Of a stretch of DNA of 64,000 nucleotides, positions 8,205-50,001 are shown piece by piece (position 1 is the stretch's first letter; each line of letters starts with the position of its first letter). The position numbers and the translations under genes are program-made. The notes under the pieces were generated by a model. It had not been told where the DNA came from, did not search any database, and saw only the letters and a list, made by a program, of their open reading frames with translations. This DNA is from Candidatus Omnitrophota bacterium (lineage in GTDB: Bacteria > Omnitrophota > Gorgyraeia > Gygaellales > Profunditerraquicolaceae), in NCBI GenBank assembly GCA_042577285.1, contig JBHPDM010000003.1, positions 825 through 64,824 on the forward strand, in the 5' to 3' direction.

Positions 8205-9087
8205 GCTCGGCGAGTTTGCTTTGATCGAAAGGTTCAGAAAGCCCTTGAAAGTGGATAAAACAGTCCTGCAGGGCAGCGGTGACGATTGCGCGGTATTGAA
8301 GTCAGGCAAAAATACTTATCAGCTTCTTACCTGCGATGCGCTAGTCGATGGGGTTGATTTTTCGCTGAGAGACGATCCTTTTTTAGTCGGCAGAAAGGCG
8401 GTAGCGGTTTCTGTCAGCGATATCGCTGCCTGCGCCGGGATCCCGCGTTATGCTCTTGTGACTTTAGGCCTGCCCCGTAGCACGGAGGTCAGTTTTATAG
8501 ATAGGCTTTATAAGGGTATGCAAAAGGCTTTAAAGAGATACTCAATAAACTTAATCGGCGGGGACCTGACCCGCTCTAAGCAGTTAATGATCAGCGTCAC
8601 TATCGTAGGCAGTGTCAGGAAGAAGCGCCTTGTATTGAGGAGAGGGGCAAAGCCAGGGGATATTATTTTTGTCACCGGCAGCTTGGGTGGCTCGATCCGC
8701 GGAAAACACCTGCGTTTTACCCCGCGAATAAAGGAGGCGCAGAAATTGACCGGAAATTTCAAGCTGAATTCCATGATCGATATATCCGACGGGCTCGTCC
8801 AGGATCTTGAAAATATCCTTAAAGAAAGCGCAAGGGGAGCGGTTATCTACGAGGAGTTGATCCCAAAAGCCAAGGAGGCGCATAATTTCAAGGAGGCGCT
8901 TTTTATGGGTGAGGATTTTGAGTTGCTCTTTACGCTTTCGCGCCGGGAAGCAAAAAAGCTTATGAAAAATAAGGGATATAACTGTACTCCTATAGGAGAG
9001 ATCGCTGACCAGGAGTATGGTTTCAGGTTGATAGATAGACGCGGCCGGGAAAGCATTGTAAGGCCGCAAGGATTCCGGCATTTTTAA
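8191..9087 (+). CDS. thiL: Thiamine-monophosphate kinase
   Basis: LGEFALIERF..GDDCAVL N-terminus and an AIR-synthase-like fold. The start is set at ATG 8191. Confidence 0.85.
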   Translation: MRVDKLGEFALIERFRKPLKVDKTVLQGSGDDCAVLKSGKNTYQLLTCDALVDGVDFSLRDDPFLVGRKAVAVSVSDIAACAGIPRYALVTLGLPRSTEVSFIDRLYKGMQKALKRYSINLIGGDLTRSKQLMISVTIVGSVRKKRLVLRRGAKPGDIIFVTGSLGGSIRGKHLRFTPRIKEAQKLTGNFKLNSMIDISDGLVQDLENILKESARGAVIYEELIPKAKEAHNFKEALFMGEDFELLFTLSRREAKKLMKNKGYNCTPIGEIADQEYGFRLIDRRGRESIVRPQGFRHF

Positions 9088-9095
9088 AGGAGTTT

Positions 9096-9566
9096 ATGCA
9101 GATACTCTCTGAATCGGTTAACCAGACCTTGAATATAGGCAGAAAACTCTCTCCGATTTTAAAGGCAGGAGATATCCTCTGTCTCTTCGGTGAGCTCGGC
9201 TCCGGAAAGACTGTTTTAGTCAAGGGGATAGCCTCAGGGCTTGGCATAAAGAAGAGCGAGGTCTTAAGCCCTACCTTTATCCTGATCCGGCAATATGAGT
9301 TTGCGGGTTCTATGCTCAATCACTTTGATCTTTACAGATTAAAGAGCGAAAAAGATATCTTAGGCTTGGGCTACGAGGATTATTTTTTCGGCTGCGGCAT
9401 AACGGTCGTGGAATGGGCTGACAGGTTAAGAAATCTTACGCCTAAGGAGTATTTAGGGATCGAACTTTCAGTCAAGGGAAAAAAGCGCAGGCTGATAAAG
9501 ATGAAGGCCTGCGGAAGGCGCTACAAGGAATTGATCGATGGGCTCAATGAAAATATTAGGAATTGA
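9096..9566 (+). CDS. tsaE: tRNA t6A37 biosynthesis ATPase TsaE
   Basis: Walker A GELGSGKT and SPTF..HFDLYR motifs. Confidence 0.9.
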   Translation: MQILSESVNQTLNIGRKLSPILKAGDILCLFGELGSGKTVLVKGIASGLGIKKSEVLSPTFILIRQYEFAGSMLNHFDLYRLKSEKDILGLGYEDYFFGCGITVVEWADRLRNLTPKEYLGIELSVKGKKRRLIKMKACGRRYKELIDGLNENIRN

Positions 9567-14920: not shown

Positions 14921-16168
14921 GTGCAAAATAAAAGAATCGTTGTAGTAGGGGCGGGCCCTGCGGGGATGATGGCGGCAATTCGCTCAGGCGAGCTAACTCG
15001 GGGCGTGACCCTGATAGAAAAAAACTCCTCCGCCGGCAAGAAGCTCCTTTTAAGCGGCAAGGGCCGCTGTAATCTTACCAATGCCTGCGACCTGGATTCA
15101 TTCCTCGCCCACTTTAGCAAAAACGGAGAATTTTTAAGAGACGCTTTCAGAAAGCTCTTTAACCGCCAGCTGATCGGGTTTTTTGAAAAAGCAGGACTGA
15201 AGCTTAAGACCGAGAGGCAGTTGAGAGTATTCCCTGCCAGCGACAGGTCAGATAGCATTTTAAGGGTCCTGAAGGAGGCCCTGCGCAGGAGTAGGGTGGT
15301 CACTAGATACGGGAGCGCACTTAAAGAGCTGTTGATCCGAGAAAAGAGGATTATCGGCCTGCTCTTGGCATCAGGGGAGACGGTCGCAGCTGATCGGGTG
15401 ATCCTGGCTACCGGCGGAGTCTCCTATAGCTTTACAGGTTCGACAGGAGAGGGTATTAATATCGTCGCGCGGCTGGGGCATAAAATAACTGCGCTCAAGG
15501 CTGGTCTGGTCCCCCTAGAAACGAGGCAGAGGGTCCCGCGCCTTTTACAGGGACTGACGCTTAGGAATATCCGCCTGAAGTTCGGCTGCGGGAGAAATGA
15601 GATAATTACAGATATCGGTGAGCTCCTCTTTACCGGGTTTGGGATCTCAGGCCCCCTGGTCCTGACGGTAAGCGGCCGGATCGCGGACTGGTTAAAAGTG
15701 AAGGGCTCTTCAGTTTATTTAGAGATAGACTTGAAGCCCGGGCTCTCAAGAGAGCAGCTGGAGATGAGGATCTTAAGGGAATTTAGGGCAGAGCCAAGGA
15801 AGAACATCAAGAATATACTTAATAACCTGCTCCCAAAGAGATTATCTGCAGTTTTATTAGATCTTGCCGGCATAACTGCCCAGAAGAAAGCAGCTGCGGT
15901 CACGCAAGAAGAGCGCAGGCGCCTGCTTGATCTATTGAAGCGTTTCAGGTTAAATATATTAGGCACTAGGCCGATCGAAGAAGCGATGGTCACCCGGGGA
16001 GGCGTCTCTTTAAAGGATATCAATCCCCGCTCAATGGAATCGCGCCTTGTAAAGGGCCTCTATTTTGCCGGGGAGATGATCGATCTGGATGCCGATACCG
16101 GGGGTTTTAACCTGCAGGCGGCATTCTCTACCGGATATCTTGCCGGCGAGAGCGCGGCATTAAATTGA
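14921..16168 (+). CDS. HI0933/YhiN-like FAD-dependent oxidoreductase
   Basis: GTG start, dinucleotide-binding motif VVGAGPAGMMAA, GKGRCNLTN, and a C-terminal GEMIDLDADTGGFNLQ pattern typical of this family. Confidence 0.8.
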   Translation: MQNKRIVVVGAGPAGMMAAIRSGELTRGVTLIEKNSSAGKKLLLSGKGRCNLTNACDLDSFLAHFSKNGEFLRDAFRKLFNRQLIGFFEKAGLKLKTERQLRVFPASDRSDSILRVLKEALRRSRVVTRYGSALKELLIREKRIIGLLLASGETVAADRVILATGGVSYSFTGSTGEGINIVARLGHKITALKAGLVPLETRQRVPRLLQGLTLRNIRLKFGCGRNEIITDIGELLFTGFGISGPLVLTVSGRIADWLKVKGSSVYLEIDLKPGLSREQLEMRILREFRAEPRKNIKNILNNLLPKRLSAVLLDLAGITAQKKAAAVTQEERRRLLDLLKRFRLNILGTRPIEEAMVTRGGVSLKDINPRSMESRLVKGLYFAGEMIDLDADTGGFNLQAAFSTGYLAGESAALN

Positions 16169-17526
16169 TGAAGAAGATTTACTTAGCTTCGGATTCCAGG
16201 CGCAGAAGGTATCTGCTTAAGAAGTTGGGCTTGAAATTTAAAGTTATCCCCAGTAGAGTCAAAGAACGAAGAAAAAAAGGCAACCTGACTTACCTGGCAT
16301 TAGTCAAGGGTAATGCCCTTAAGAAGGCTCAAGATGTGGCTAAGCGCGTTAAGGGCGGATTGATCATCGGCGCCGATACGATCGTCGTTCAGGAGGGGAG
16401 CATCTTTGGCAAGCCCAAAGATTTAAAAGCTGCCCGCAGGATGCTTAAAAAATTAAGTCGCCGTCCTCAGTGGATCTATACTGGCCTGGCCGTAATCGAT
16501 AAGGATAAAGGAAAGACTATCTCGGATTATGAAAAGAGTAAGGTTTATATGGATGATTTAAGTGATCAAGCCGTACGGGCTTACTTTTCACGCGTATCCC
16601 CCTTAGATAAAGCAGGGGGTTTTGACGTTCAGGGGCCTGGCGCCCGCTTTATCCGGCGCATTGAGGGGTCTTTCTATAACGTAGTCGGGCTCCCTTTAAA
16701 GAAATTATCCTTAATCTTGAAAAAGTTAGATATCAAGCCGAAACCATTTTTTCTTTTAATCTTGGGTTTGTGTTTTTCTCTTTCGGCTTGTTCCACCGAA
16801 TACAATATCGTTACCGGCAAGGAAGAGCTTTATTACTACAGTACTGACAGGGAGGTGCAGATCGGCCGCTCGATCGCCAAACAAATTCAGGAGGATAAGG
16901 AGACGGAGCCGGCTGAAGATCCGCTGATCCAGGAGCGGGTTGAAGATATCGGTAAAAGGATCGCTACGGTTTGCGACAGGAAGGATATAGATTATCATTT
17001 CATGGTGCTGGAGGAGGATGAGGTCAATGCCTTTGCCCTCCCCGGAGGTTTTGTCTACATTTACAGAGGGCTGATCGATAAGATAGAGAACGATGATCAG
17101 CTTGCCTGTGTGATCGCCCATGAAATCGGGCATATCGTTGCCCGCCACAGCATCAAGAAGCTGCAGGCGATCACCGGGTATTCAATACTCAGGATCCTAA
17201 CAGTTGCCGCGCCGCAGGGCGCCCAGGTCGGTAATGCCGCTGATCTGGCATTTGCTTCGATCATCACCGGTTACGCCCGGGAGGATGAGCTGCTCGCCGA
17301 CCGCCTAGGCACGCGCTACGCCAAGATGGCAGGCTATGACCCAAGGGCGATGATTGATTTTCTGGAGAAGCTGCAGGAGATAAACAGGAGAAAACCGCTT
17401 AGGCCCAAGTCATATTTTAAGACGCATCCTTATGTCCCGGACAGGATCCGCGTAGTCAAGCAGGAGCTTGGCGAAAGAATCGATTTTTCCGACTATATAA
17501 ATATTGAGCAGCTTGAGGGGGAGTGA
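16165..17526 (+). CDS. maf: Single ORF encoding a Maf nucleotide pyrophosphatase (about aa 1-184), then a lipoprotein-type signal, then an M48 zinc metalloprotease
   Basis: Maf pattern (IYLASDSRRRRYLL, GADTIV, GAYGIQ-like GGFDVQG, VVGLPL). Then KKLDIKPKPFFLLILGLCFSLSAC (lipobox LSAC), then an M48 HExxH motif (AHEIGHIVARH). There is no stop codon between the two parts. Confidence 0.85.
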   Translation: MMKKIYLASDSRRRRYLLKKLGLKFKVIPSRVKERRKKGNLTYLALVKGNALKKAQDVAKRVKGGLIIGADTIVVQEGSIFGKPKDLKAARRMLKKLSRRPQWIYTGLAVIDKDKGKTISDYEKSKVYMDDLSDQAVRAYFSRVSPLDKAGGFDVQGPGARFIRRIEGSFYNVVGLPLKKLSLILKKLDIKPKPFFLLILGLCFSLSACSTEYNIVTGKEELYYYSTDREVQIGRSIAKQIQEDKETEPAEDPLIQERVEDIGKRIATVCDRKDIDYHFMVLEEDEVNAFALPGGFVYIYRGLIDKIENDDQLACVIAHEIGHIVARHSIKKLQAITGYSILRILTVAAPQGAQVGNAADLAFASIITGYAREDELLADRLGTRYAKMAGYDPRAMIDFLEKLQEINRRKPLRPKSYFKTHPYVPDRIRVVKQELGERIDFSDYINIEQLEGE

Positions 17527-22058: not shown

Positions 22059-22697
22059 ATGCGTAAACTTATCGTCGAGGAACTAAAACATCACGCACCC
22101 TTTACTGCGCTGGGCGCAATTTCAGGGATCGCGATCATGATCTTCTTCCGTAATATACCGGCATCCTTATCTTATAATATTTTCTACGTCCTGCACCCGG
22201 CACACGTTTTGTTAAGCGCCCTGGTCACTGCCTCGATGTACGGGTTGCATAAGTGCGGGATGATCAAGGGCAAATGCAATCTCTTCACGCTGCTTGTGAT
22301 CGGCTATGTCGGCTCGATCGGGATAGCTACTTTAAGCGATTCTCTGATCCCCTATATCGGGGAGGTCCTGCTGGATCTGCCTCACCGGCATGTCCATATC
22401 GGTTTTATTGAAAAGTGGTGGTTGATCAATCCGTTGGCAGTGATCGGCGTGGCCATAGCCTATCGGCGGCCTGGGACTAAATTTCCGCATTACGGACATG
22501 TCCTCCTGAGTACCTGGGCATCCCTTTTTCATATTATTATGGCCCGGGGAGGAGATTTCGGCTGGGCTGCCTATCTGGGGGTATTCGTGTTTTTGTTTAT
22601 AGCAGTCTGGGTCCCATGCTGCGTAAGCGATATAATCTTTCCGCTTCTTTTTGTGAAGGAGAAGAAGGGAAGGGATGGTGCCGAGAGGGGGAGTTGA
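22059..22697 (+). CDS. His-rich polytopic membrane protein of unknown function (possible metal transporter)
   Basis: It has about 6 hydrophobic segments and several His pairs (HH, HPAH, HRHVH, HYGH). The last ~7 codons overlap the tRNA-Leu gene on the opposite strand. Confidence 0.5.
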   Translation: MRKLIVEELKHHAPFTALGAISGIAIMIFFRNIPASLSYNIFYVLHPAHVLLSALVTASMYGLHKCGMIKGKCNLFTLLVIGYVGSIGIATLSDSLIPYIGEVLLDLPHRHVHIGFIEKWWLINPLAVIGVAIAYRRPGTKFPHYGHVLLSTWASLFHIIMARGGDFGWAAYLGVFVFLFIAVWVPCCVSDIIFPLLFVKEKKGRDGAERGS

Positions 22698-22761
22698 ACC
22701 CCCATGAGGTTGCCCTCACTAGCTCCTGAAGCTAGCGTGTCTGCCATTCCACCATCTCGGC
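22676..22761 (-). tRNA. tRNA-Leu (anticodon CAG), type II with a long variable arm and encoded CCA
   Basis: The reverse complement is GCCGAGA..CTAGC-TTCAGGA-GCTAG..GGGGG-TTCAACT-CCCCC-TCTCGGC-A-CCA. The cloverleaf was checked by hand. Confidence 0.9.
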
Positions 22762-24326: not shown

Positions 24327-24737
24327 GGGGGTGAAAGGGTTCGACCTGAGTAATCAGGGTAAGAGTAGCATGCCGCGGACGCAGGGTTGGCCGCGTTAAC
24401 AATCCTTGCACAATATAAACGCAAACAGAACATCGTTAAACCGCGTTTTTGCACAGCAGCCAGTAATGGTTGCTGCGCCTTTCGCGGGCGTTCCAGTCTT
24501 CAGCCCCCAGTAGGGTTGAAGCCTCTATCCATCCTGCCTACGGGTTGAAATAGAGACTACAGTAGGATAGCTTCGGTAAATTAGCCTTTGGGGCCGAAGC
24601 GAAATTTTAAAAGGCTGCGCTTTGCAAATCCTGCCCTGTAGGAGTTGCAAAGTCAACTTTAATATGCAGGGCTAAGCATGTAGCGGCTTTTATTCTATTA
24701 TCCAGGGACGCCGGTTCAACTCCGGCCACCTCCACCA
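24327..24737 (+). ncRNA. ssrA: tmRNA (transfer-messenger RNA)
   Basis: The 5' end GGGGGTGAAAGGGTTCGAC and the 3' end GGACGCCGGTTCAACTCCGGCCACCTCCACCA form a tRNA-Ala-like acceptor and T-arm. The gene follows smpB. Confidence 0.9.
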
Positions 24738-31591: not shown

Positions 31592-31666
31592 CGGGAAGTG
31601 GCTCAGCTTGGCTAGAGCGCTTGCTTTGGGAGCAAGAGGCCGGCGGTTCAAATCCGCCCTTCCCGA
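31592..31666 (+). tRNA. tRNA-Pro (anticodon TGG)
   Basis: CGGGAAG acceptor, anticodon arm CTTGC-TTTGGGA-GCAAG, T arm GGCGG-TTCAAAT-CCGCC, and 3' CTTCCCG-A. CCA is not encoded. Confidence 0.9.
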
Positions 31667-31680
31667 CTTGGATTTAAGAT

Positions 31681-31757
31681 GTCCCTGTAGCTCAGTTGGA
31701 TAGAGCATCTGCCTTCTAAGCAGAGGGTCGCGTGTTCGACTCACGCCAGGGACACCA
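31681..31757 (+). tRNA. tRNA-Arg (anticodon TCT), CCA encoded
   Basis: GTCCCTG acceptor, anticodon arm TCTGC-CTTCTAA-GCAGA, T arm with TTCGACT loop, and 3' CAGGGAC-A-CCA. Confidence 0.9.
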
Positions 31758-31764
31758 GATTATT

Positions 31765-32943
31765 ATGAAAGAATTTAAAAAATACCTGATTACGGCCTGT
31801 ATCATCGTCGCGGCTCTTTACGGAGCTTTATATTTGTCAATACTCTTTCTTGGCAAGACGATCCTGATCAGCCGGCTTAAGGAGTTGACAAAGAAAGATG
31901 TAAGTATCGGGCATTTTGTCCTCAGGCCGCCCTTTAATATCTACCTGGAGAAATTAGATATTAAAGATCTGGCCAGGGCAGATTCGATATCAATTTCACC
32001 AAGCGCAATAGGGTTTTTGACAGGCAATATAGTTTTTAATTCCATTACGGTTAAGAACCCGGAAGTTGTTTATGAGAGGGCAATGGCCGGGAGAGCGCAA
32101 TCATCTGCTGCTGTTTCGTCAGTGGCAACCGGCGCAGGCAAAGAAAAATCACGCTTACGCCTATTCTTGAAGCGCGCGAGGATCGAGAACGGCAAAGTGA
32201 TATTCATCGATCATTCGACAGGGGAAAAGGGGATCAAGTTGATCGTGGAGGAGATAGATTTTCGCCTTGATAATCTCGGCCTTTTGCCCCGCTCTATGCG
32301 TACTAATTTCAAGTTGCAGGGGCGCGTGCCCTGGCAGAGGGATGGATATAAGGGGAAAATTACAGCCGAGGGTTGGTTTAATATCTTTAAGAAAGATATG
32401 CAGGCAGCCTTAAAATTCGAAGATATCGACGGGGTCTATCTCTATCCTTACTATTCGCAATGGGTGGATTTGGATAAGGCGCGCATCGAGAGTGCGAAGC
32501 TTCAATTTACCAGCGATATCGAAGCGGTGGATAATGATCTGACTGCCAAATGCCGCGTTGAGCTGACAGATATCGTACGCCGGCAGCGACTCGTCGATGA
32601 AGAGCCGGGAAAAGAAGAAAAGATCGCTGACGCGGTGCTGGATGTATTCCGGATCCTTAATCAGGGAGGGGTAGTCTTTAATTTTACGATCAGGACCAAG
32701 ATGAACAGTCCGCAGTTTAGCGCAGGCGATATCAAGGAAGCATTTGATGAAAAAGTCGCTCTGGCAAAAGCAAAGAAGAGGTCTGAATTTAAGGTGGAGA
32801 ATGTCTTCGCCTTCCCCGTGAGGTTCCTGGAGGGGTTGGCAGAGGGGGCGCTTGAACTATCCCGGGCGGCTGTAGACGGGACCTACGCCCTGGGCAAGGA
32901 ATTAAAGGACTCGGTAGAGATCGCTTTTACTAAAGAAGAGTAG
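31765..32943 (+). CDS. Membrane-anchored hypothetical protein (DUF748/AsmA-like by composition)
   Basis: An N-terminal TM helix (YLITACIIVAALYGALYLSILFL) followed by a beta-rich repetitive body. The family assignment is from memory only. Confidence 0.4.
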   Translation: MKEFKKYLITACIIVAALYGALYLSILFLGKTILISRLKELTKKDVSIGHFVLRPPFNIYLEKLDIKDLARADSISISPSAIGFLTGNIVFNSITVKNPEVVYERAMAGRAQSSAAVSSVATGAGKEKSRLRLFLKRARIENGKVIFIDHSTGEKGIKLIVEEIDFRLDNLGLLPRSMRTNFKLQGRVPWQRDGYKGKITAEGWFNIFKKDMQAALKFEDIDGVYLYPYYSQWVDLDKARIESAKLQFTSDIEAVDNDLTAKCRVELTDIVRRQRLVDEEPGKEEKIADAVLDVFRILNQGGVVFNFTIRTKMNSPQFSAGDIKEAFDEKVALAKAKKRSEFKVENVFAFPVRFLEGLAEGALELSRAAVDGTYALGKELKDSVEIAFTKEE

Positions 32944-32959: not shown

Positions 32960-33037
32960 GGTGGCTGTAGCTCAATTGGTTAGAGCATTAGACTGTGGCT
33001 CTAAAGGTTGCGGGTTCGATCCCCGTCAGCCACCCCA
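32960..33037 (+). tRNA. tRNA-His (anticodon GTG) with encoded G-1 and CCA
   Basis: G-GTGGCTG acceptor, anticodon arm TTAGA-CTGTGGC-TCTAA, T arm GCGGG-TTCGATC-CCCGT, and 3' CAGCCAC-C-CCA. Confidence 0.9.
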
Positions 33038-43380: not shown

Positions 43381-45837
43381 ATGAGAAAAAGAATCCTCAT
43401 CGGCCTGCTGATCATCGCCTTGATAGTTACTGGCGCCCTGATCTATGTAAATAAGGTAATCCTTCCCACAAGAGTCAAATCCCTGATCATCGCAAAACTC
43501 CAGGATTTCACCGGCAAGAGCGTCAGCCTTGACGCTGTCCGGATCGATCTATTCAAGGGGCTGGTATTAGATGGCCTCACTCTTTATGAAGGGGAAGACC
43601 CCCTTGTCAGTATCGATCAGCTCTCAAGCCAGCTTTTGATCATCCCGATATTTAAAAAGAGGATCATCTCGCCTGCCATCAAGGTCAGGTCTGCCGTGAT
43701 CCATCTGGAGCGCAGGCAGGATAATACCTATAACCTCGCGGACCTGTTTACCGGTATTCCGGCGCCCAAAGAGGAAGCTAAGTTCAGCTTCCTGGCCTAT
43801 AAGCTGCTGGTTGCTGATGCAAGAGTCGTCTTCAAGGACAATACGCTTTCTCCGGCATTTACCAGGGATTTAGATAAACTACAGGCAGTATTCTATTTTT
43901 CGCTCCCTGCCAGCATAAAGTTCCGGCTTAAATTCCAGATCCCCGCAGAAGAGCCGATCAAGATAAACGCTTCCGGAGAGTATGATATCGCAGGCGCCGG
44001 CCTGCTGGCAAAGTTAAGCATTAAAGGATTCTCTTTTAAGGAATTTCTCGCTTATTCCAAGGGAATCGCTGCTTGGGATCCGAAAGGGGCGGTGGATCTT
44101 CTTGCCGATATCCGCTTTAAAGACGGGAAGCTTTCAGCTGACGTAGATTTAGAAGCGCCGCAGCTTGATCTTAACGCGCAAGGATTCTCACTGGAATTGC
44201 ACACCCAGGCCAGGGCCAGGTTGGAATTTCAGCTTGATAGCAGGAAGATGGGTTATTCAGGAACAGCCAGGGTCAGCGACTCTATTATTTCCGGCCTAGA
44301 GTCAATAGGTAAGATCAGCGCTGTAAGCGGGAAATTCGCCTTTGATAATACCGGTGTCTCTTCAGACGACTTAAGTGCAGTTGTCCTCGGTCTTCCGGTC
44401 CAGGCCAGGTTGAAGTTAAAAGGCCTAATTTTGCGGATCGATGCTGATACCGCATTCGGCCTCGCCAGCGCAAAACAGATATTAGAGAAAAACTTTAAGG
44501 TGAGCCTGCCGGTAGGGGCAGAGGGTGAGGGCAAGCTGTCTCTTTTGGTAGAAAGGGATTTTCTCTCCGCTAAACCTCTAGCCTTAAGCGGTTCTTTAGG
44601 CATAACCAACGCCAGATTTAAGTCTGCCATTGCAGATGCATATATCGAAAGCGTCAACGGCAGGGTCGATTTTACCCGCAACAGCCTAAAGTGGTCTGAT
44701 CTGGATTTCAAATACGCGCAAGTCTCCTATAAAAGCAGCGGAACACTGGTTGATTTTCAGGATCCTAAGGTAAAATTGGCTTTGGGATCCCGCGAACTTA
44801 AATTGCAATCCGATTTCAGCGTTAAGGACAAGTTCGTCAAGGTATCTAAGTGTTCGGGGAGTTTCTTGAATTCGAAGTTTTCGCTTGTAGGCAACGTCGA
44901 TCGCAGTAGTTTCCCCGGAGTGAAGCTGGATATTGCAGGGATTTTAGACGTAGATCTCGATGATCTTAAGAAGGTCCTAAAGAAGCACAAAGAGCGCCTT
45001 GAGGAGTTAAAGCTTAAGGGTAAGATGCGTGTCGAATACAGTCTCCTCGGCAGAGTCGATGACCTAACGTCGGCTGCCATCCGGATACGGCTTATCAGTA
45101 ATTCGCTTTCCGTCTTTGGATTGAATCCGGATAACTTTGAGTTAGATTATGATCAATCCGAAGGACTGGCCCGGATCCCCCTGGCAAGTTTATCGCTTTA
45201 TGATGGGATATTCCAGATAAGGGGGAGGATGAACCTTGCTGCAAGAGAGCTCCCCTTCTGGGTCGAAGTGGGCATGGAGGGGATAAAACTCGAGAAGCTT
45301 AAGCTTGATACCAAATCAAAGAAAAAGGATATCTCAGGTACTGTTGCCGGAAAGACAAAGCTTCAAGGTTTTTTTGGGCATCCTGATAAATTAAGCGGGA
45401 GAGGCCAGCTTTTGATCACTGATGGAAGATTGTGGCAGCTGGATCTCTTCATGGGGCTGGGGAAGCTGCTCTTTATCAGCGATTTTTCCTCTGTCGTATT
45501 TAACGAAGGCTCCTGTTCTTTTGTAGTCAAAGAGAAAGAAGTTTTTATCGATGATGTCATCTTTCGAAGCAATCTTGCTGACTTAAGCGGCTCCGGCAGG
45601 ATAGGTTTTGACGGTTCGCTGGACGGAGTCCTTAGTGTGCACGTCAATGACGAAAACGCTCCGCTTGTCGGCACATTTAAGGATATAACCACCGCTATAG
45701 TCGGCCAGGCAGGCAGGTTCGGCACGATAAAGTTGAGCGGTACCCTTAAGGAGCCCAAATATAAGTTTAAAGCCGCTGTTGTCGATCTTCTCAAGGGCCT
45801 CAAGGATGCGATCCTTGGGATCCACTCCCCGCAATAG
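43381..45837 (+). CDS. AsmA/TamB-like large envelope protein
   Basis: An N-terminal TM anchor (ILIGLLIIALIVTGALIYV), then ~790 aa of beta-rich repetitive sequence with the C-terminal pattern typical of AsmA-like proteins. Confidence 0.6.
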   Translation: MRKRILIGLLIIALIVTGALIYVNKVILPTRVKSLIIAKLQDFTGKSVSLDAVRIDLFKGLVLDGLTLYEGEDPLVSIDQLSSQLLIIPIFKKRIISPAIKVRSAVIHLERRQDNTYNLADLFTGIPAPKEEAKFSFLAYKLLVADARVVFKDNTLSPAFTRDLDKLQAVFYFSLPASIKFRLKFQIPAEEPIKINASGEYDIAGAGLLAKLSIKGFSFKEFLAYSKGIAAWDPKGAVDLLADIRFKDGKLSADVDLEAPQLDLNAQGFSLELHTQARARLEFQLDSRKMGYSGTARVSDSIISGLESIGKISAVSGKFAFDNTGVSSDDLSAVVLGLPVQARLKLKGLILRIDADTAFGLASAKQILEKNFKVSLPVGAEGEGKLSLLVERDFLSAKPLALSGSLGITNARFKSAIADAYIESVNGRVDFTRNSLKWSDLDFKYAQVSYKSSGTLVDFQDPKVKLALGSRELKLQSDFSVKDKFVKVSKCSGSFLNSKFSLVGNVDRSSFPGVKLDIAGILDVDLDDLKKVLKKHKERLEELKLKGKMRVEYSLLGRVDDLTSAAIRIRLISNSLSVFGLNPDNFELDYDQSEGLARIPLASLSLYDGIFQIRGRMNLAARELPFWVEVGMEGIKLEKLKLDTKSKKKDISGTVAGKTKLQGFFGHPDKLSGRGQLLITDGRLWQLDLFMGLGKLLFISDFSSVVFNEGSCSFVVKEKEVFIDDVIFRSNLADLSGSGRIGFDGSLDGVLSVHVNDENAPLVGTFKDITTAIVGQAGRFGTIKLSGTLKEPKYKFKAAVVDLLKGLKDAILGIHSPQ

Positions 45838-45853
45838 AAAAAAATTGAATTCT

Positions 45854-45882
45854 GTTGCTTAATCTCAAAGTAAATATTATAA
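45854..45882 (+). promoter_or_regulatory. Sigma-70-type promoter for the extended EF-G gene
   Basis: TTGCTT, a 17-nt spacer, then TATAAT. Confidence 0.5.
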
Positions 45883-45916
45883 TATACGCATGCAAAATAC
45901 AACACACCGCTAAAAG

Positions 45917-48900
45917 ATGATTGTTGTACTGGTTATCATGTTTCTGGCTGCGATCTCTCTGACCGTATACGGCCTCTTTGTGCCTTATAAGAGAAGCAGA
46001 AAGGCCCGGAAAAGGAGAAAGCCGGTAACTACTTCCGCGGATGGAAATCTGAGCTATGAGCAGGAGAAGATCTCGCAGCTGGAGATTAGGATCGGCTCGC
46101 TTGAGGCGGAATTAGAGAAGGCCAAAGGCGATTACTCAAAGATCCATGGTGAAGTCAAGGAGGCAAGAAAAAGCGATTCAGAGCTGAAGCGGGAGCTTGA
46201 GCGTCGTCAGGCCTGGGTCGGTAAGAGTGAGGAGGAAGTAAGTAAGGTCAAGTCTGAAAAGATCGGACTTAAGAACCGGTTTGTAGAAAAAGAAAAACAG
46301 TTGCAGGTCGAATTTACTAAAAACGTCAACCTGAATAAAGAGCTCAGGGGGGCGCTGGAGAGGATAAAATCGCTGGAGGTAGAGAGGAAGGGCTTGACTG
46401 ATCAGCTGGAGCTTTCAAAGCATAAAATAGAACATTTCACCAAGGAGATGAAGGCGCAGGTGGATAATGTCAAGCAGTTAAAGCGGCGCCAGGATGAGAG
46501 CGAGTGGGTTCCCAAGAAGGAGTTTAATAAATTAAATCAGGAGTACACTGAACTTGAGAAAGAGTTGGAGGCGGCCGAAGAGCGGATAAAGAAACTGGAG
46601 AGTAGGTTTAAAACAGGGGCTGCAGCAGTGCAGCAAGCGCCAACTGAGCCGCAGCAGCCTCAAGAGAGCCCCGTAGAAGCACCCATAGAAGCACCCGAAG
46701 AAGTAGAAGCGCCTGCGCAGGAACCTCCCCCTGAAGAACCTCCCCCTGAAGAACCTCCTCCTGAAGAACCTCCTCCTGAAGAACCTCTTCCTGAAGAACC
46801 TCCTCCTGAAGAACCTCACCTTGCGGAAGCAGACGCAGCGCCGAAGGAGAGGAAGCCTTCCGGAGCTCCCATGATAGAGCTGGAGCGTATCAGGAATATC
46901 GGTATCATGGCCCATATCGACGCCGGTAAGACTACCTTGACAGAGAGAATATTATATTATACCGGCCGCTCCCATAAGATCGGCGAGGTGCATGACGGTA
47001 AGGCGCAGATGGACTGGATGAAACAGGAGAGGGAGAGGGGGATCACGATCACTTCGGCAGCGACCACCTGTTCTTGGAATGAGCACAGGATAAATATCAT
47101 CGATACCCCGGGGCACGTTGATTTTACGGTAGAGGTCGAACGCAGCCTGCGAGTGCTTGACGGCGCGGTGGCGGTCTTCTGCGCCGTCGGCGGCGTGGAG
47201 CCGCAGTCCGAGACGGTTTGGAGGCAGTCTGATAAATACGGGGTCCCTAAGATAGCATTTGTAAATAAGATGGACCGTGTGGGAGCGGATTACTTTGCCG
47301 TGGTCAAGGGCATAGAAGAGGAGCTGGAGGGTAATCCGGCCCCCGTCGTCATACCGATGACCAGCGAGGATAAATTTTCCGGTACCATCGACCTGATAGA
47401 GATGAAGGCATATAAGTACGAAGAGGAATCGCTGGGGAAGGAGTTCCATGCCGAGGAGATCCCGGCGCAATTCCAGGATACTGCAAAGAAGCAGAGGCAC
47501 ATCCTTCTGGAGAAGGCCTGCGCATTCGATGATGCCCTGATGAAAAAGTTTCTCGAAGCCGAAGATTCCATAACCGCTGACCAGATAAAGAGCGCACTGC
47601 GCAAGGGCACAGTCTCCAACAAATTAGTCCCGGTCTTGTGCGGCTCATCCTTAAAGAACAAGGGGGTACAGAAACTTCTCGATGCGGTGGTCTCTTACCT
47701 GCCTTCGCCAAAGGACATGCCGCCGGTATCAGGAACTGACCCGGATGACCCGGAAAAGAACATTCAGAGAGAGCAGAATATCAATGAGCCTCTCTCAGCC
47801 CTGGCATTCAAGGTCCAGGCTGATCCGCACATGGGAAAACTTATCTACGTGCGCGTCTACTCCGGTTTTATTGACAGCGGTTCCTACATTTTTAATTCCA
47901 CAAAAAGCAAGAAGGAACGGGTGGGCAGGATCGTGCAGATGCACGCCAACCAGAGGGAGAATACCCAGTGCGCCTTTGCCGGAGATATCGTGGCTGTGGT
48001 AGGCCTTAATAATACTACTACCGGCGATACTCTATGCTGGCCGGAGAGCCCGGTACTGCTTGAGACAATGGAGTTCCCTGAGCCGGTAGTCTCATTGAGT
48101 ATCTCTCCAAAGAGCCCTAAGGATCAAGATAAGCTTGGTAAGGGCCTGGCCCGGTTGACGGAAGAGGATCCTACCTTTATGGTTACATCTGATGAGGAGA
48201 CCGAGGAGACGATCCTGACCGGAATGGGTGAATTACACCTTGAGATCATTGTCGACAGGTTAAAGGAGGAGTTCGGCGTAGAGGCGGATGTCGGCCAGCC
48301 AAAGGTCGCATACCGCGAGACGATCCTGAAGGAGGCTTCCGGAGAGGGCAAATACATCAAGCAATCAGGCGGACGCGGCCAATACGGCCACGTAGTCATG
48401 GAGCTGGCACCCGCAGAAAAGGGTGTGGGCTTGGAATTTATAGACAGTATTAAGGGCGGCGCTATACCTCAGGGGTTTATGCCGGCAATACAAAAAGGTA
48501 TCAAGGAGGCGATGGATAAGGGGGTGATCGCCGGTTATCCGGTGGTAGATGTCAAGGTCGATATTGTCGACGGCTCCTTCCATGAGGTGGATTCCTCGGA
48601 GCTTGCCTTCAGGTTTGCCTCTATCTTTGGTTTTAAACAGGCCTTTATGCAGGCAGAGCCGGTCCTGCTTGAGCCCTACATGTCCCTGGAGGTCACGACG
48701 CCTGACGAATACGCGAACAGCATCGTCGGCTACATCTGTTCGCGCAGGGGAAAAGTGATGAATATGGAGACAAAGGGCAAGCAGAAGATCATCTCCTCGG
48801 AGGCCCCGCTCTCTGAGATGTTCGGTTATACCACGAACCTCCGTTCATTAAGCAGCGGCCGGGCAAATGCCTCGATGGAGTTTTGCCGCTATGAACAGGT

Positions 48901-48958
48901 GCCAAAGGAGATCACCCAGAAGATTATCGAGGAGAGGAAAAAAGAGAATGAGAGGTAG
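45917..48958 (+). CDS. EF-G family translational GTPase with a 318-aa N-terminal extension (TM helix, basic patch, coiled coil, Pro/Glu repeats)
   Basis: One continuous ORF. A full-length EF-G begins at residue 319 ([34 protein letters not shown]). It is not in an rpsL-rpsG-fusA-tuf context. Confidence 0.85.
46721..46819 (+). repeat. 15-bp tandem repeat GAACCTCC(C/T)CCTGAA, about 6.6 copies, encoding (EEPPP)n
   Basis: Read directly from the sequence. The copies differ only at a few positions. Confidence 0.95.
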
Positions 48959-48975: not shown

Positions 48976-50001
48976 ATGTATAAGACGCGGATAATCTGCA
49001 CGATCGGACCGGCGAGCGAAAGTGTGACGGTATTAAGGAATATGATGCTGGCGGGAATGGACCTGGCCAGGCTTAATTTCTCCCACGGCAGCCATGCGGA
49101 GCACGCCCGGCGCATAGATCTGATCAGGCAGTTAAATAAAAAGTACCGGCGGCGCATCAGGATACTGCAGGACCTGGAGGGATACCGGATCAGAATCGGC
49201 AGGTTCAAAAAGGCAGGGGCTCTCGAGTTAAAAAAGAAGCAGATAGCGATTCTGACAAACAAGGGTATCTTAGGTGAAAAAAATATAATACCTTTTGACT
49301 ACGCAGGAAGCCCCAAGGACATCCCTGCAGGAAGTTACATATATATCGACGACGGCAATATTGCCCTGCAGGTAAAGTCAAGGAGCAAAAGCGGACTTAA
49401 GGCGGAAGTGATTGTTCCCGGCACAGTAAAGGAAAACAAGGGAGTCAATATCCCCGGGGTTAATCTAAGATTCAAAGGGCTGACCGATAAAGACAAAGCC
49501 GATATTCAATTCGGGATAAAGCATAAGGTCGATTATATTGCGCAGTCATTTGTAAGAGACAAAAGCGATATCCTTAAGATCAGGAGATTGATCAAGGGCA
49601 GACTCCCCGGATGCAAGTTGATCGCCAAGATCGAGAACCGCCGGGGGATCAGGAACATCGATAAGATCATCGGAGTCTCCGACGGCATCATGATCGCGCG
49701 CGGAGATATGGGAGTTTCAATTCCTTTATATGAAATACCTGTGGTCCAGAAAGAGATCATCAGAAAGTGTAACAGGGCAAGGAAGTTTGTGATCACCGCT
49801 ACCCAGATGCTCGAGAGCATGGTGGAAAATATCCGGCCGACCAGGGCCGAGGTCACCGATGTCGCTAATGCGATTATCGATGGCTCTGATTTTCTCATGC
49901 TTTCAGCAGAAACGGCAGCAGGCAGGTATCCGGTCCGGGCGGTAAAGATGATGAATCAGGTCATCGGATTTACGGAAAGGTCAGGGATTAAAAGAAGATG
50001 A
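48976..50001 (+). CDS. pyk: Pyruvate kinase lacking the C-terminal (allosteric) domain
   Basis: [26 protein letters not shown] and [12 protein letters not shown] motifs. The ORF stops ~30 aa after the last A-domain motif, giving 341 aa. Confidence 0.85.

Follow-up and report, generated by a model that had tools for sequence, protein, structure and literature searches.

A canonical elongation factor G fused to a predicted membrane anchor and coiled-coil stalk across Candidatus Omnitrophota

Elongation factor G (EF-G) is among the best-studied proteins and is usually treated as a freely diffusing cytosolic factor. A stretch of 64,000 nucleotides from a Candidatus Omnitrophota bacterium (assembly GCA_042577285.1, contig JBHPDM010000003.1; referred to here as the window) raises the question of whether an EF-G can also be built as a membrane protein. 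On its forward strand, at 45917..48958, the window carries one open reading frame (ORF) of 1013 codons plus stop, in which a complete EF-G is preceded by 318 residues predicted to form a transmembrane (TM) helix, a basic segment, a coiled coil and a disordered linker. A first-pass annotation, which was made from the letters of the window alone, had read this ORF as a single membrane-anchored paralogue of EF-G. Our analysis reveals that this core translation factor has here a new domain architecture, which is real, phylum-wide and under strong selection.

One open frame across a phylum

The ORF starts at the first ATG past the upstream stop codon, and between 45917 and 48958 no stop separates the N-terminal parts from the EF-G, so that both its extent and its 1013 codons agree with the earlier reading. 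When the full product was searched against ~5.8 billion proteins, it matched more than 110 clusters whose members measure 975-1042 amino acids (aa), with 98-100% query coverage and ~60-64% identity. Using a profile of the N-terminal 245 residues, we found this module in 111 species-representative genomes, almost all of them assigned to Candidatus Omnitrophota; the labels outside the phylum were some automatic 'uncultured Planctomycetales' entries of the ENA and one 'Margulisiibacteriota'. For closer inspection we used 81 readable loci from species-representative genomes and a family alignment of 108 sequences. Module and EF-G lie in one open frame in 70 of the 81 loci, which settles in favour of a fusion whether homologues carry the upstream part joined to EF-G or as a separate gene, given that it stands independently in only about 12% of species. 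To this we could add the selection acting on each part: omega, determined after Nei and Gojobori for the 16 closest pairs, was 0.03-0.14 in the coiled coil, 0.13-0.48 in the linker and 0.02-0.08 in the EF-G. The values for the coiled coil indicate that the extension is translated and constrained. Thus, the fusion into one protein proposed by the first-pass annotation is real and conserved, and its extension is under strong purifying selection.

This architecture has been hidden by annotation. The NCBI calls, of 695 aa in the window (P0001) and 683 aa in a sister strain, were the only short sequences among the top matches. P0001 is an exact substring of the open fused frame of the window, and the same holds true for the short EF-G entries P0278, P0284, P0285, P0286, P0295 and P0301 in the loci L022, L050, L004, L021, L012 and L056, respectively. 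Three further NCBI annotations leave a gap of ~1 kb upstream of the called EF-G, unannotated, with the module in frame inside it. Altogether, the trimmed calls measure ~690-785 aa, several of them start from non-ATG codons, and they concern the loci L004, L012, L021, L022, L050, L056, L084, L086, L087 and L088 as well as 45917-46870 of the window. The NCBI pipeline cuts the gene to the length expected of the EF-G family, so that neither RefSeq-style annotation nor the analyses that draw on it can show the architecture. Exact-protein look-ups of the 1013-aa product and of P0001 returned no record. Full-text literature searches turned up no paper that describes an EF-G with a membrane anchor or an N-terminal extension, in line with the earlier remark that no such membrane-anchored protein was known.

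The first-pass annotation had further suggested that a free EF-G isoform could be made from the internal ATG at 46871. This ATG exists, as does the GGAG 5 nt before it, exactly at the EF-G boundary. However, a Shine-Dalgarno (SD)-like 4-mer is found at 26% of the in-frame codon positions of this purine-rich ORF and in only 15 of 54 genes of the window; at such a chance frequency the GGAG upstream of 46871 is uninformative, and we discarded the SD argument for an internal start. Neither is the start itself conserved. A methionine within 12 residues before the G1 strand occurs in only 5 of 118 long homologues, at a different position, and the sister-strain contig (L001) has ACG at the codon of the internal ATG, with the frame open through the junction.

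From the anchor to the GTPase

The protein begins with a hydrophobic helix (aa 1-24, 45917..45988; Kyte-Doolittle value 2.66) that is not preceded by any charged residue and is followed by a basic, disordered juxtamembrane segment (aa 25-46, 45989..46054) with a predicted local distance difference test (pLDDT) score below 50. An AlphaFold2 model calculated from the 108-sequence alignment shows helix at residues 2-20 and disorder at 22-46. In the 20 residues after the helix, the window protein has nine K/R and one D/E, which makes this segment the putative positive-inside determinant. The pattern holds throughout the family: K and R number 5.7 on average in the 20 residues past the helix versus 0.1 (0.11) ahead of it, and the C-terminal flank exceeds the N-terminal one in 108 of 108 sequences. 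Across the same sequences, the uncharged N-terminal stretch has a median length of 26 aa (range 19-33). A hydrophobic N-terminus was present in 80 of the 81 loci, the one exception being masked by Ns. A cleavable Sec signal peptide was considered and rejected, as there is no charge before the hydrophobic stretch, this stretch is too long and the positive cluster follows the helix; the distinction was made from charge and hydrophobic length. The N-terminal helix is thus predicted from charge to be a signal-anchor with a cytoplasmic C-terminus, and the topology signal is unanimous. Hence, the helix with its basic flank is seen in the sequence as described at first, and the orientation then deduced from the positive-inside rule, with coiled coil and GTPase in the cytoplasm, extends to the whole family.

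Residues 47-194 (46055..46498) form an uninterrupted heptad coiled coil of the canonical left-handed type, comprising about 21 heptads and measuring ~22 nm if straight, with the invariant residues W100 and F133. It keeps one heptad register over its entire length. Across the family, core hydrophobicity gives a sharp Fourier peak at exactly 3.50 residues, with a power of 2.26 versus a median of 0.06 and 0.05 at 3.6 residues, and the a and d positions of aa 47-194 are occupied by L, I, V, M or F in 57% of cases versus 9% at the other positions. The coiled-coil alignment is gap-free. At aa 195-200 (46499..46516) follows the SEWVPK motif, the best-conserved of the N-terminal module, whose near-invariant columns include W197 and which coincides with a helix break or hinge. 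W100 and W197 stand 97 aa apart in 67 of 71 loci; in the other four an extra heptad widens the distance to 104 aa. Beyond the break, a second heptad helix (aa 201-234, 46517..46618) takes up the 3.50-residue period again and contains the invariant residues F203, L206, N207, E209 and E214. With the break included, the coiled coil covers 188 aa. The AlphaFold2 model (mean pLDDT 77.9) agrees with this layout, showing a single continuous helix at 47-194, the break at 195-200, a helix at 201-234, disorder at 235-320 and a confident EF-G fold. The ~200 residues that had been judged coiled-coil by eye are therefore borne out by their periodicity and by the model. As a coiled coil needs a partner helix, the protein probably self-associates; its stalk would form a dimer or trimer or pair with a paralogue.

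The stalk is linked to the EF-G by a disordered Pro/Glu/Ala-rich segment (aa 235-318, 46619..46870; pLDDT 30-40), which we refer to as the leash. Within it lies a 15-bp tandem repeat encoding (EEPPP)n. The first-pass annotation had placed this repeat correctly within the Pro/Glu-rich segment and let it end at 46819; Tandem Repeats Finder assigns it to 46721..46817, with 6.5 copies and 96% matches, a copy number that comes from this one assembly. Across the family the linker is rich in E (23%), K (13%) and P (11%), and it is poorly alignable, with 37% mean identity and many indels. From the W197 motif, the G1 motif is 105 to 209 aa away; 48 distinct distances occur, all of them in frame. Tandem repeats are found in 36 of 80 linkers, in 34 of these 36 with a period that is a multiple of three. 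The (EEPPP)n of the window is one case of a general, length-tunable leash.

The sister-strain contig L001, which shares 97.8% DNA identity with the window over 6.9 kb, opens at the end of the repeat array: positions 1-22 of L001 are unrelated bases, and its match sets in at 46814 of the window. Such a start indicates that the 15-bp repeat breaks short-read assemblies. We had considered this contig, the source of P0002, as an independent read of the extension and rejected it for this use, since it begins at the repeat end and confirms only the last ~57 nt before the EF-G.

From residue 319 onwards the protein is a complete canonical EF-G (aa 319-1013, 46871..48955), consisting of the domains G with G', II, III, IV and V according to Pfam, TIGR00484 and the AlphaFold2 model. 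The Pfam domains GTP_EFTU, EF-G_D2, EFG_III, EFG_IV and EFG_C follow one another in this order at aa 323-1002, in agreement with the ~695-aa EF-G noted earlier. The TIGR00484 equivalog model is matched with 1055.2 bits at a cut-off of 659.4, over profile positions 5-691 of 691. EF-G from Thermus thermophilus (1EFG) is 56.5% identical over 681 columns with five gap columns, its residues 8-689 being covered. The closest solved structures are the housekeeping EF-Gs of Thermus, E. coli and S. aureus (~845-875 bits), followed by 4FN5 and 6N0I (811-840), mtEF-G1 (565), mtEF-G2 (489), EF-G-2 (414) and TetM/TetO (230-245 bits; TetM 243). Thus, neither of the divergent types that had been considered at first, EF-G2 and Tet(M)-like, applies, and by sequence the moiety is of the canonical housekeeping type. 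The models for EF-G2 or EF-G-like proteins (NF009377, NF058620 and NF009892) gave 511, 497 and 210 bits against cut-offs of 890, 1000 and 640, and the ribosomal protection model NF012153 for the Tet(M)/Tet(O) type gave 395 against 775 bits, with the remaining Tet models far below their cut-offs.

The functional elements are equally well preserved. In the G domain including G' (aa 323-597, 46883..47707), the P-loop, DTPGH and NKMD motifs are invariant across the 108 sequences, as are both decoding-centre loop tips of domain IV (aa 795-914, 48299..48658), GGRGQYGH and SFHEVDSS. The invariant residues of domain IV are Q816, G818, G819, G821-H825, D885-S887, H889 and V891-S894, and the moiety as a whole shows 76% mean pairwise identity. 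As every catalytic and decoding-centre element is kept, the EF-G moiety should bind ribosomes and translocate, and we predict it to be a fully competent translocase. On every sequence criterion tested it is a member of the canonical EF-G family, and it departs from this family in location and architecture. tblastn and reading of the loci place it outside the str operon, a location that is usual for EF-G and not part of the formal family definition, and in place of a soluble protein of ~700 aa without extra domains we find the conserved 318-aa extension of TM helix, coiled coil and linker.

An autonomous module and repeated loss of EF-G

The N-terminal module also occurs without EF-G. An exhaustive profile search of 1.84 billion representatives gave 396 module matches, many of which stand alone, and EF-G was the sole extra domain ever attached to the module. 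The stand-alone proteins of ~225 aa, the named ones being 'hypothetical proteins' of Omnitrophota, share its layout and have two invariant tryptophans at positions 100 and 197. Aligned by hhalign, the module and this ~225-aa family match with 99.8% probability (E = 1.9e-29) over 202 colinear columns. The window protein displays the features of the family, i.e. the TM helix, the basic patch, the heptad coil, the Trp pair 97 residues apart and a C-terminal W-V-x-K-x-E-[FY]. The module can therefore be assigned to an Omnitrophota-specific family of small coiled-coil proteins with a predicted membrane anchor.

No family in Pfam-A, NCBIfam or the PDB matches the module above threshold; profile searches of these collections gave only sub-threshold generic coiled-coil matches. 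Crescentin, keratin and Lpp were rejected as relatives, their sub-threshold matches being due to composition, and MshEN/PilZ proteins among the matched representatives do not have the Trp motifs and were matched by coiled-coil composition only. One member of the ~225-aa family, P0213, carries a precomputed Pfam tag, PF28533.1, which is absent from the Pfam-A copy that we searched; the family may very recently have been given a Pfam entry.

In ten loci, a module of the long type ends in a stop codon, with its acidic tail kept and EF-G absent. Seven of the ten form one clade nested among fused sequences, in which the gene order pheS-pheT-MgsA-[module]-PPIase-UvrD-DUF5981-NifU-RNase Y is the same as in fused relatives such as L069. 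Likewise, L003 is syntenic with the window (pyruvate kinase 74% identical, nitroreductase, H+-PPase 80%), and its module ORF stops 10 nt before the pyruvate kinase gene, with no EF-G. These syntenic loci indicate at least two clean losses of the EF-G moiety in which the module was retained.

Split versions of the fused gene are rare. In L082 (7204-10240) and L083 (9100-12136) the module (314 aa) and the EF-G (711 aa) lie in different frames with an overlap of 44 nt, owing to a 1-nt shift in an A8 run (GCAAAAAAAAGAGG) within the linker. As both are 100% identical over 3037 bp and may be the same data, we count them as one sequence, and the shift may mark a slippage site or a pseudogene, or stem from a sequencing error. 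L084 (8861-10001) suggests a second frameshifted case: an open frame leads from the coiled coil into EF-G only from position 9011 onwards, and the TM part appears to lie in a separately called ORF of 109 aa (8861-9191) in another frame.

The genomic setting of the fused gene varies. A large Omnitrophota clade has it in a conserved block of the order (thrS-infC-rpmI-rplT)-pheS-pheT-MgsA/RarA-[module +/- EF-G]-PPIase-UvrD-DUF5981-NifU-RNase Y-YmdB (L019, L023, L029, L041, L044, L048, L054, L061, L063, L067, L069, L072 and L082-L084), which puts the gene beside a translation-gene cluster. In other clades it follows dnaG-rpoD (L086, L087) or an AsmA gene (the window, L088).

In the window, the tethered EF-G gene is flanked by an AsmA-like gene upstream and a pyruvate kinase gene downstream, as assigned by Pfam. 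A 79-nt AT-rich gap separates it from the former, in which a possible -10 box, TATAAT, can be read by eye at 45878..45883, 33 nt upstream of the ATG, with TTGCTT as a weak -35 candidate 17 nt further upstream. A strict promoter scan listed no sigma-70 site upstream of 45917, and the TATAAT is only suggestive as a promoter element. The upstream neighbour (43381-45837) is the second AsmA/DUF748/YhdP-like gene of the window, and the same arrangement is seen in L088. The pyruvate kinase (48976-50001, +) is only 341 aa long and consists of the barrel domain (aa 3-323) without the C-terminal PK_C domain, a short form that is also kept in L001 and L003. The remainder of the window is ordinary housekeeping DNA. 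It contains a full-length tmRNA gene (24327-24737, +; Rfam RF00023, 169.5 bits) and tRNA genes at 31592-31666, 31681-31754 and 32961-33034 (+) and at 22679-22761 (-). A DUF748/AsmA-like ORF (31732-32943, +) begins with GTG and overlaps the second of these tRNA genes by 23 nt, so that its true start is probably further downstream. At 16165-17526 (+), a frame of 453 aa joins a Maf-like nucleotide pyrophosphatase domain (aa 4-187) to a peptidase M48 domain (aa 256-433), which is an unusual fusion.

A second copy and its possible role

Is the tethered protein the only EF-G of its host? The 64-kb window holds no str operon and neither S12 nor EF-Tu. With S12 and EF-Tu of E. coli and the EF-G domain as queries, tblastn against the window and the 81 loci (1.34 Mb) found no S12, EF-Tu or second EF-G; S12 or EF-Tu lay within 10 kb in none of 80 loci and, in particular, in none of the 70 fused ones. 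When the database was searched with the EF-G part only, the best 120 matches were all fused or mis-trimmed fused genes, and a scan of viral and mobile-element contigs did not find a second EF-G. The repeated clean losses, on the other hand, imply that another EF-G is required in those genomes. In a 2026 preprint that covers 229 complete or high-quality genomes of Omnitrophota, chromosomes are described as carrying the canonical order S12-S7-EF-G-EF-Tu-S10-L3, and a long or anchored EF-G is not mentioned (10.64898/2026.06.07.730766). Judging from the losses, the context of the fused loci and the operon of the preprint, we consider it likely that most fusion-bearing genomes also carry a soluble EF-G. 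The term paralogue, used by the first-pass annotation, is thus probably right.

Bacteria with two EF-Gs are the nearest functional precedents. In these, known EF-G paralogues divide their labour by activity, namely translocation versus recycling. Examples are EF-G1A/EF-G1B of P. aeruginosa (4FN5), EF-G-2 of T. thermophilus (1WDT), the spd EF-G1/2 of spirochaetes and planctomycetes and mtEF-G1/mtEF-G2; the tethered protein is likewise a probable second copy, and the extra copy of Pseudomonas is also of the canonical type. However, the paralogues of these pairs are soluble, whereas the tethered EF-G is set apart by its localisation module, and its sequence resembles canonical EF-G far more than EF-G-2 or mtEF-G2 (414 and 489 bits, see above). 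Compared with canonical EF-G itself (Thermus 1EFG/1DAR, E. coli, S. aureus), it has the same colinear five-domain fold, GTPase motifs and loop tips, but adds the 318-aa extension, lies outside rpsL-rpsG-fusA-tuf and is predicted to be a membrane-bound oligomer instead of a free monomer.

With this at hand, we slightly favour a reading in which one polypeptide places a bona fide EF-G at the cytoplasmic face of the inner membrane, most likely as a second copy that supplies membrane-bound ribosomes. On insertion as a reverse signal-anchor, the helix would leave the N-terminus outside and keep the rest of the protein inside. The coiled coil of 148 + 34 residues would pair with itself or a paralogue into a stalk of roughly 20-25 nm, on which a disordered Pro/Glu/Lys-rich leash of 70-170 residues, tuned in length by in-frame gain and loss of repeats, would carry the EF-G, probably in two or three copies per stalk. 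The stalk of ~22 nm and a leash contour of up to ~25 nm would define a working zone of a few tens of nanometres under the membrane. Here, the tethered EF-G would bind ribosomes, drive GTP-dependent translocation and, together with the ribosome recycling factor, recycling. It would thereby supplement the soluble EF-G of the str operon and raise the local EF-G concentration for translocon-engaged ribosomes.

The nearest architectural analogues are FtsY, p180/RRBP1 and TonB, none of which is homologous to the module. FtsY, the receptor of the signal recognition particle and a translation-associated GTPase at the membrane, has a membrane-targeting N-terminus and an acidic low-complexity A domain ahead of its GTPase; unlike the tethered EF-G, it is an NG-domain SIMIBI GTPase without a coiled coil, is usually peripheral and acts in targeting. 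p180/RRBP1, a ribosome receptor of the eukaryotic ER, is likewise built of a TM anchor, a basic segment and a long coiled coil in the cytoplasm and has been linked to membrane-associated translation, but it shows no sequence relation, binds ribosomes by basic decapeptide repeats and carries no translation factor. In TonB, a (Glu-Pro)n/(Lys-Pro)n spacer follows the TM anchor and determines how far the C-terminal domain can reach; TonB, however, is periplasmic and has neither coiled coil nor GTPase, and the charge distribution in our protein predicts the opposite topology. That the N-terminus of EF-G can carry a fusion while on the ribosome is reportedly seen in the L9-EF-G crystals of Lin et al. 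from 2015. This engineered chimera (4WPO, 4WQF), to residues 74-756 of which our query aligns, likewise has an N-terminal fusion partner, but is artificial, with a short linker to a ribosomal protein and no natural membrane tether.

Could the arrangement be read in other ways? An assembly or sequencing error in the repeat might have joined a membrane coiled-coil gene to fusA, or only the 695-aa form might be made, as NCBI annotates it (P0001); the repeat does break at least one assembly, and rare split versions exist. Yet 70 independent genomes from many studies keep one frame across 48 linker lengths, the extension evolves at an omega of 0.03-0.14, homologues have no start codon at the EF-G boundary, the short NCBI calls are substrings of open fused frames, several with non-ATG starts and each with its ~1 kb gap, and in the sister strain the frame is open through the junction. 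Such an artefact is very improbable and effectively excluded. Surface moonlighting of elongation factors has been reported in some pathogens, and EF-G might accordingly act as a moonlighting adhesin that the helix anchors to the periplasmic or outer side. The epibiotic lifestyle of Omnitrophota (PMC10066038) would suit such a display. The unanimous positive-inside signal, however, puts the C-terminus into the cytoplasm, and the strict conservation of GTPase motifs and decoding loops would be senseless away from GTP and ribosomes; display is hardly credible and likewise effectively excluded. For the related GTPase LepA, storage at the membrane has been put forward, and in a similar manner the anchor could store EF-G until a signal, e.g. 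host attachment, frees a soluble form by linker proteolysis, internal initiation or frameshifting. This idea draws on the long, disordered linker that is exposed in the AlphaFold2 model, on the ATG with its GGAG exactly at the EF-G boundary of the window, and on the A8 run as a slippage-prone site in one lineage. It conflicts with the scarcity of the internal methionine (5 of 118 homologues, elsewhere in position, and ACG in the sister strain), the chance frequency of the SD-like motif, the lack of a visible conserved cleavage motif in an indel-rich linker of 37% mean identity, and the fact that the A8 case is a single sequence from two identical assemblies. Regulated release is therefore unlikely.

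It is similarly doubtful that the tethered protein is the sole housekeeping EF-G, so that all elongation would depend on a membrane-bound factor. The reach of stalk and leash would make this feasible in cells of ~0.2 µm (PMC10066038), and the canonical type with best scores to housekeeping EF-Gs, the strong constraint (76% mean pairwise identity, omega 0.02-0.08) and the 120 fused or mis-trimmed best matches all fit a sole copy. However, at least two lineages have cleanly deleted the EF-G moiety, with its neighbours in place, and need another EF-G, and the str operon of the preprint holds an EF-G (10.64898/2026.06.07.730766), yet 0 of 70 fused loci are in that context. Finally, the coiled-coil membrane scaffold may be the primary element and EF-G its GTP-controlled ribosome-binding head, bringing ribosomes or polysomes to the membrane in a p180-like manner. 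In favour of this, the module forms an older family that exists in its own right, with stand-alone paralogues of ~225 aa in Omnitrophota; it is retained, tail included, after EF-G loss, and only EF-G was ever fused to it. But EF-G binds ribosomes transiently and in a cycle-dependent way and would make a poor anchor, the fully conserved catalytic and domain IV tip residues argue for complete translocase function over mere binding, and the Pfam, NCBIfam and PDB profiles recognise no ribosome-binding element in the module. We thus give a ribosome hook only a small chance.

The preferred reading of a second, membrane-bound EF-G that supplies membrane-bound ribosomes has its own difficulties, which weigh against it. 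Membrane insertion, oligomeric state and ribosome activity are predictions, and the second-copy part depends on a soluble EF-G that we infer for the same genomes. A most canonical-looking and very strongly conserved EF-G would also fit a sole housekeeping factor. A rigid stalk of ~22 nm would set EF-G farther from the membrane than the factor site of a ribosome docked to SecYEG, so that the geometry is not obviously optimised; the long leash could compensate for this distance. The persistence of module and acidic tail without EF-G in some lineages means that the module has a function of its own, and the gene neighbourhoods are housekeeping and give no link to secretion.

If the membrane form of EF-G is real, bacteria can localise a step of elongation or recycling, beyond the targeting of ribosomes by the signal recognition particle and FtsY, and these lineages would offer a natural experiment on how diffusion and local concentration of a factor limit translation. 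A practical lesson is that trimming genes to family length leaves ~1 kb of strongly conserved coding sequence unannotated. For Omnitrophota, a more far-reaching and still tentative proposal, to which we give less than even weight, is a spatial split of elongation: soluble EF-G would serve cytosolic ribosomes, and oligomeric tethered EF-G would be dedicated to translocon-bound ribosomes, sustaining hours-long co-translational export of giant (10,000 to >100,000 aa) membrane and surface proteins in a zone set by the length of stalk and leash. Were this true, the protein would provide the first example in nature of a core elongation factor built into the membrane as an integral protein. Omnitrophota cells measure ~0.2 µm, and giant ORFs of >20 kb, coding for many TM helices and for extracellular domains, are frequent among them (PMC10066038). 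The tethered EF-G may, as a working hypothesis, be tied to these two odd traits of the phylum, its ultra-small cells and its giant exported proteins.

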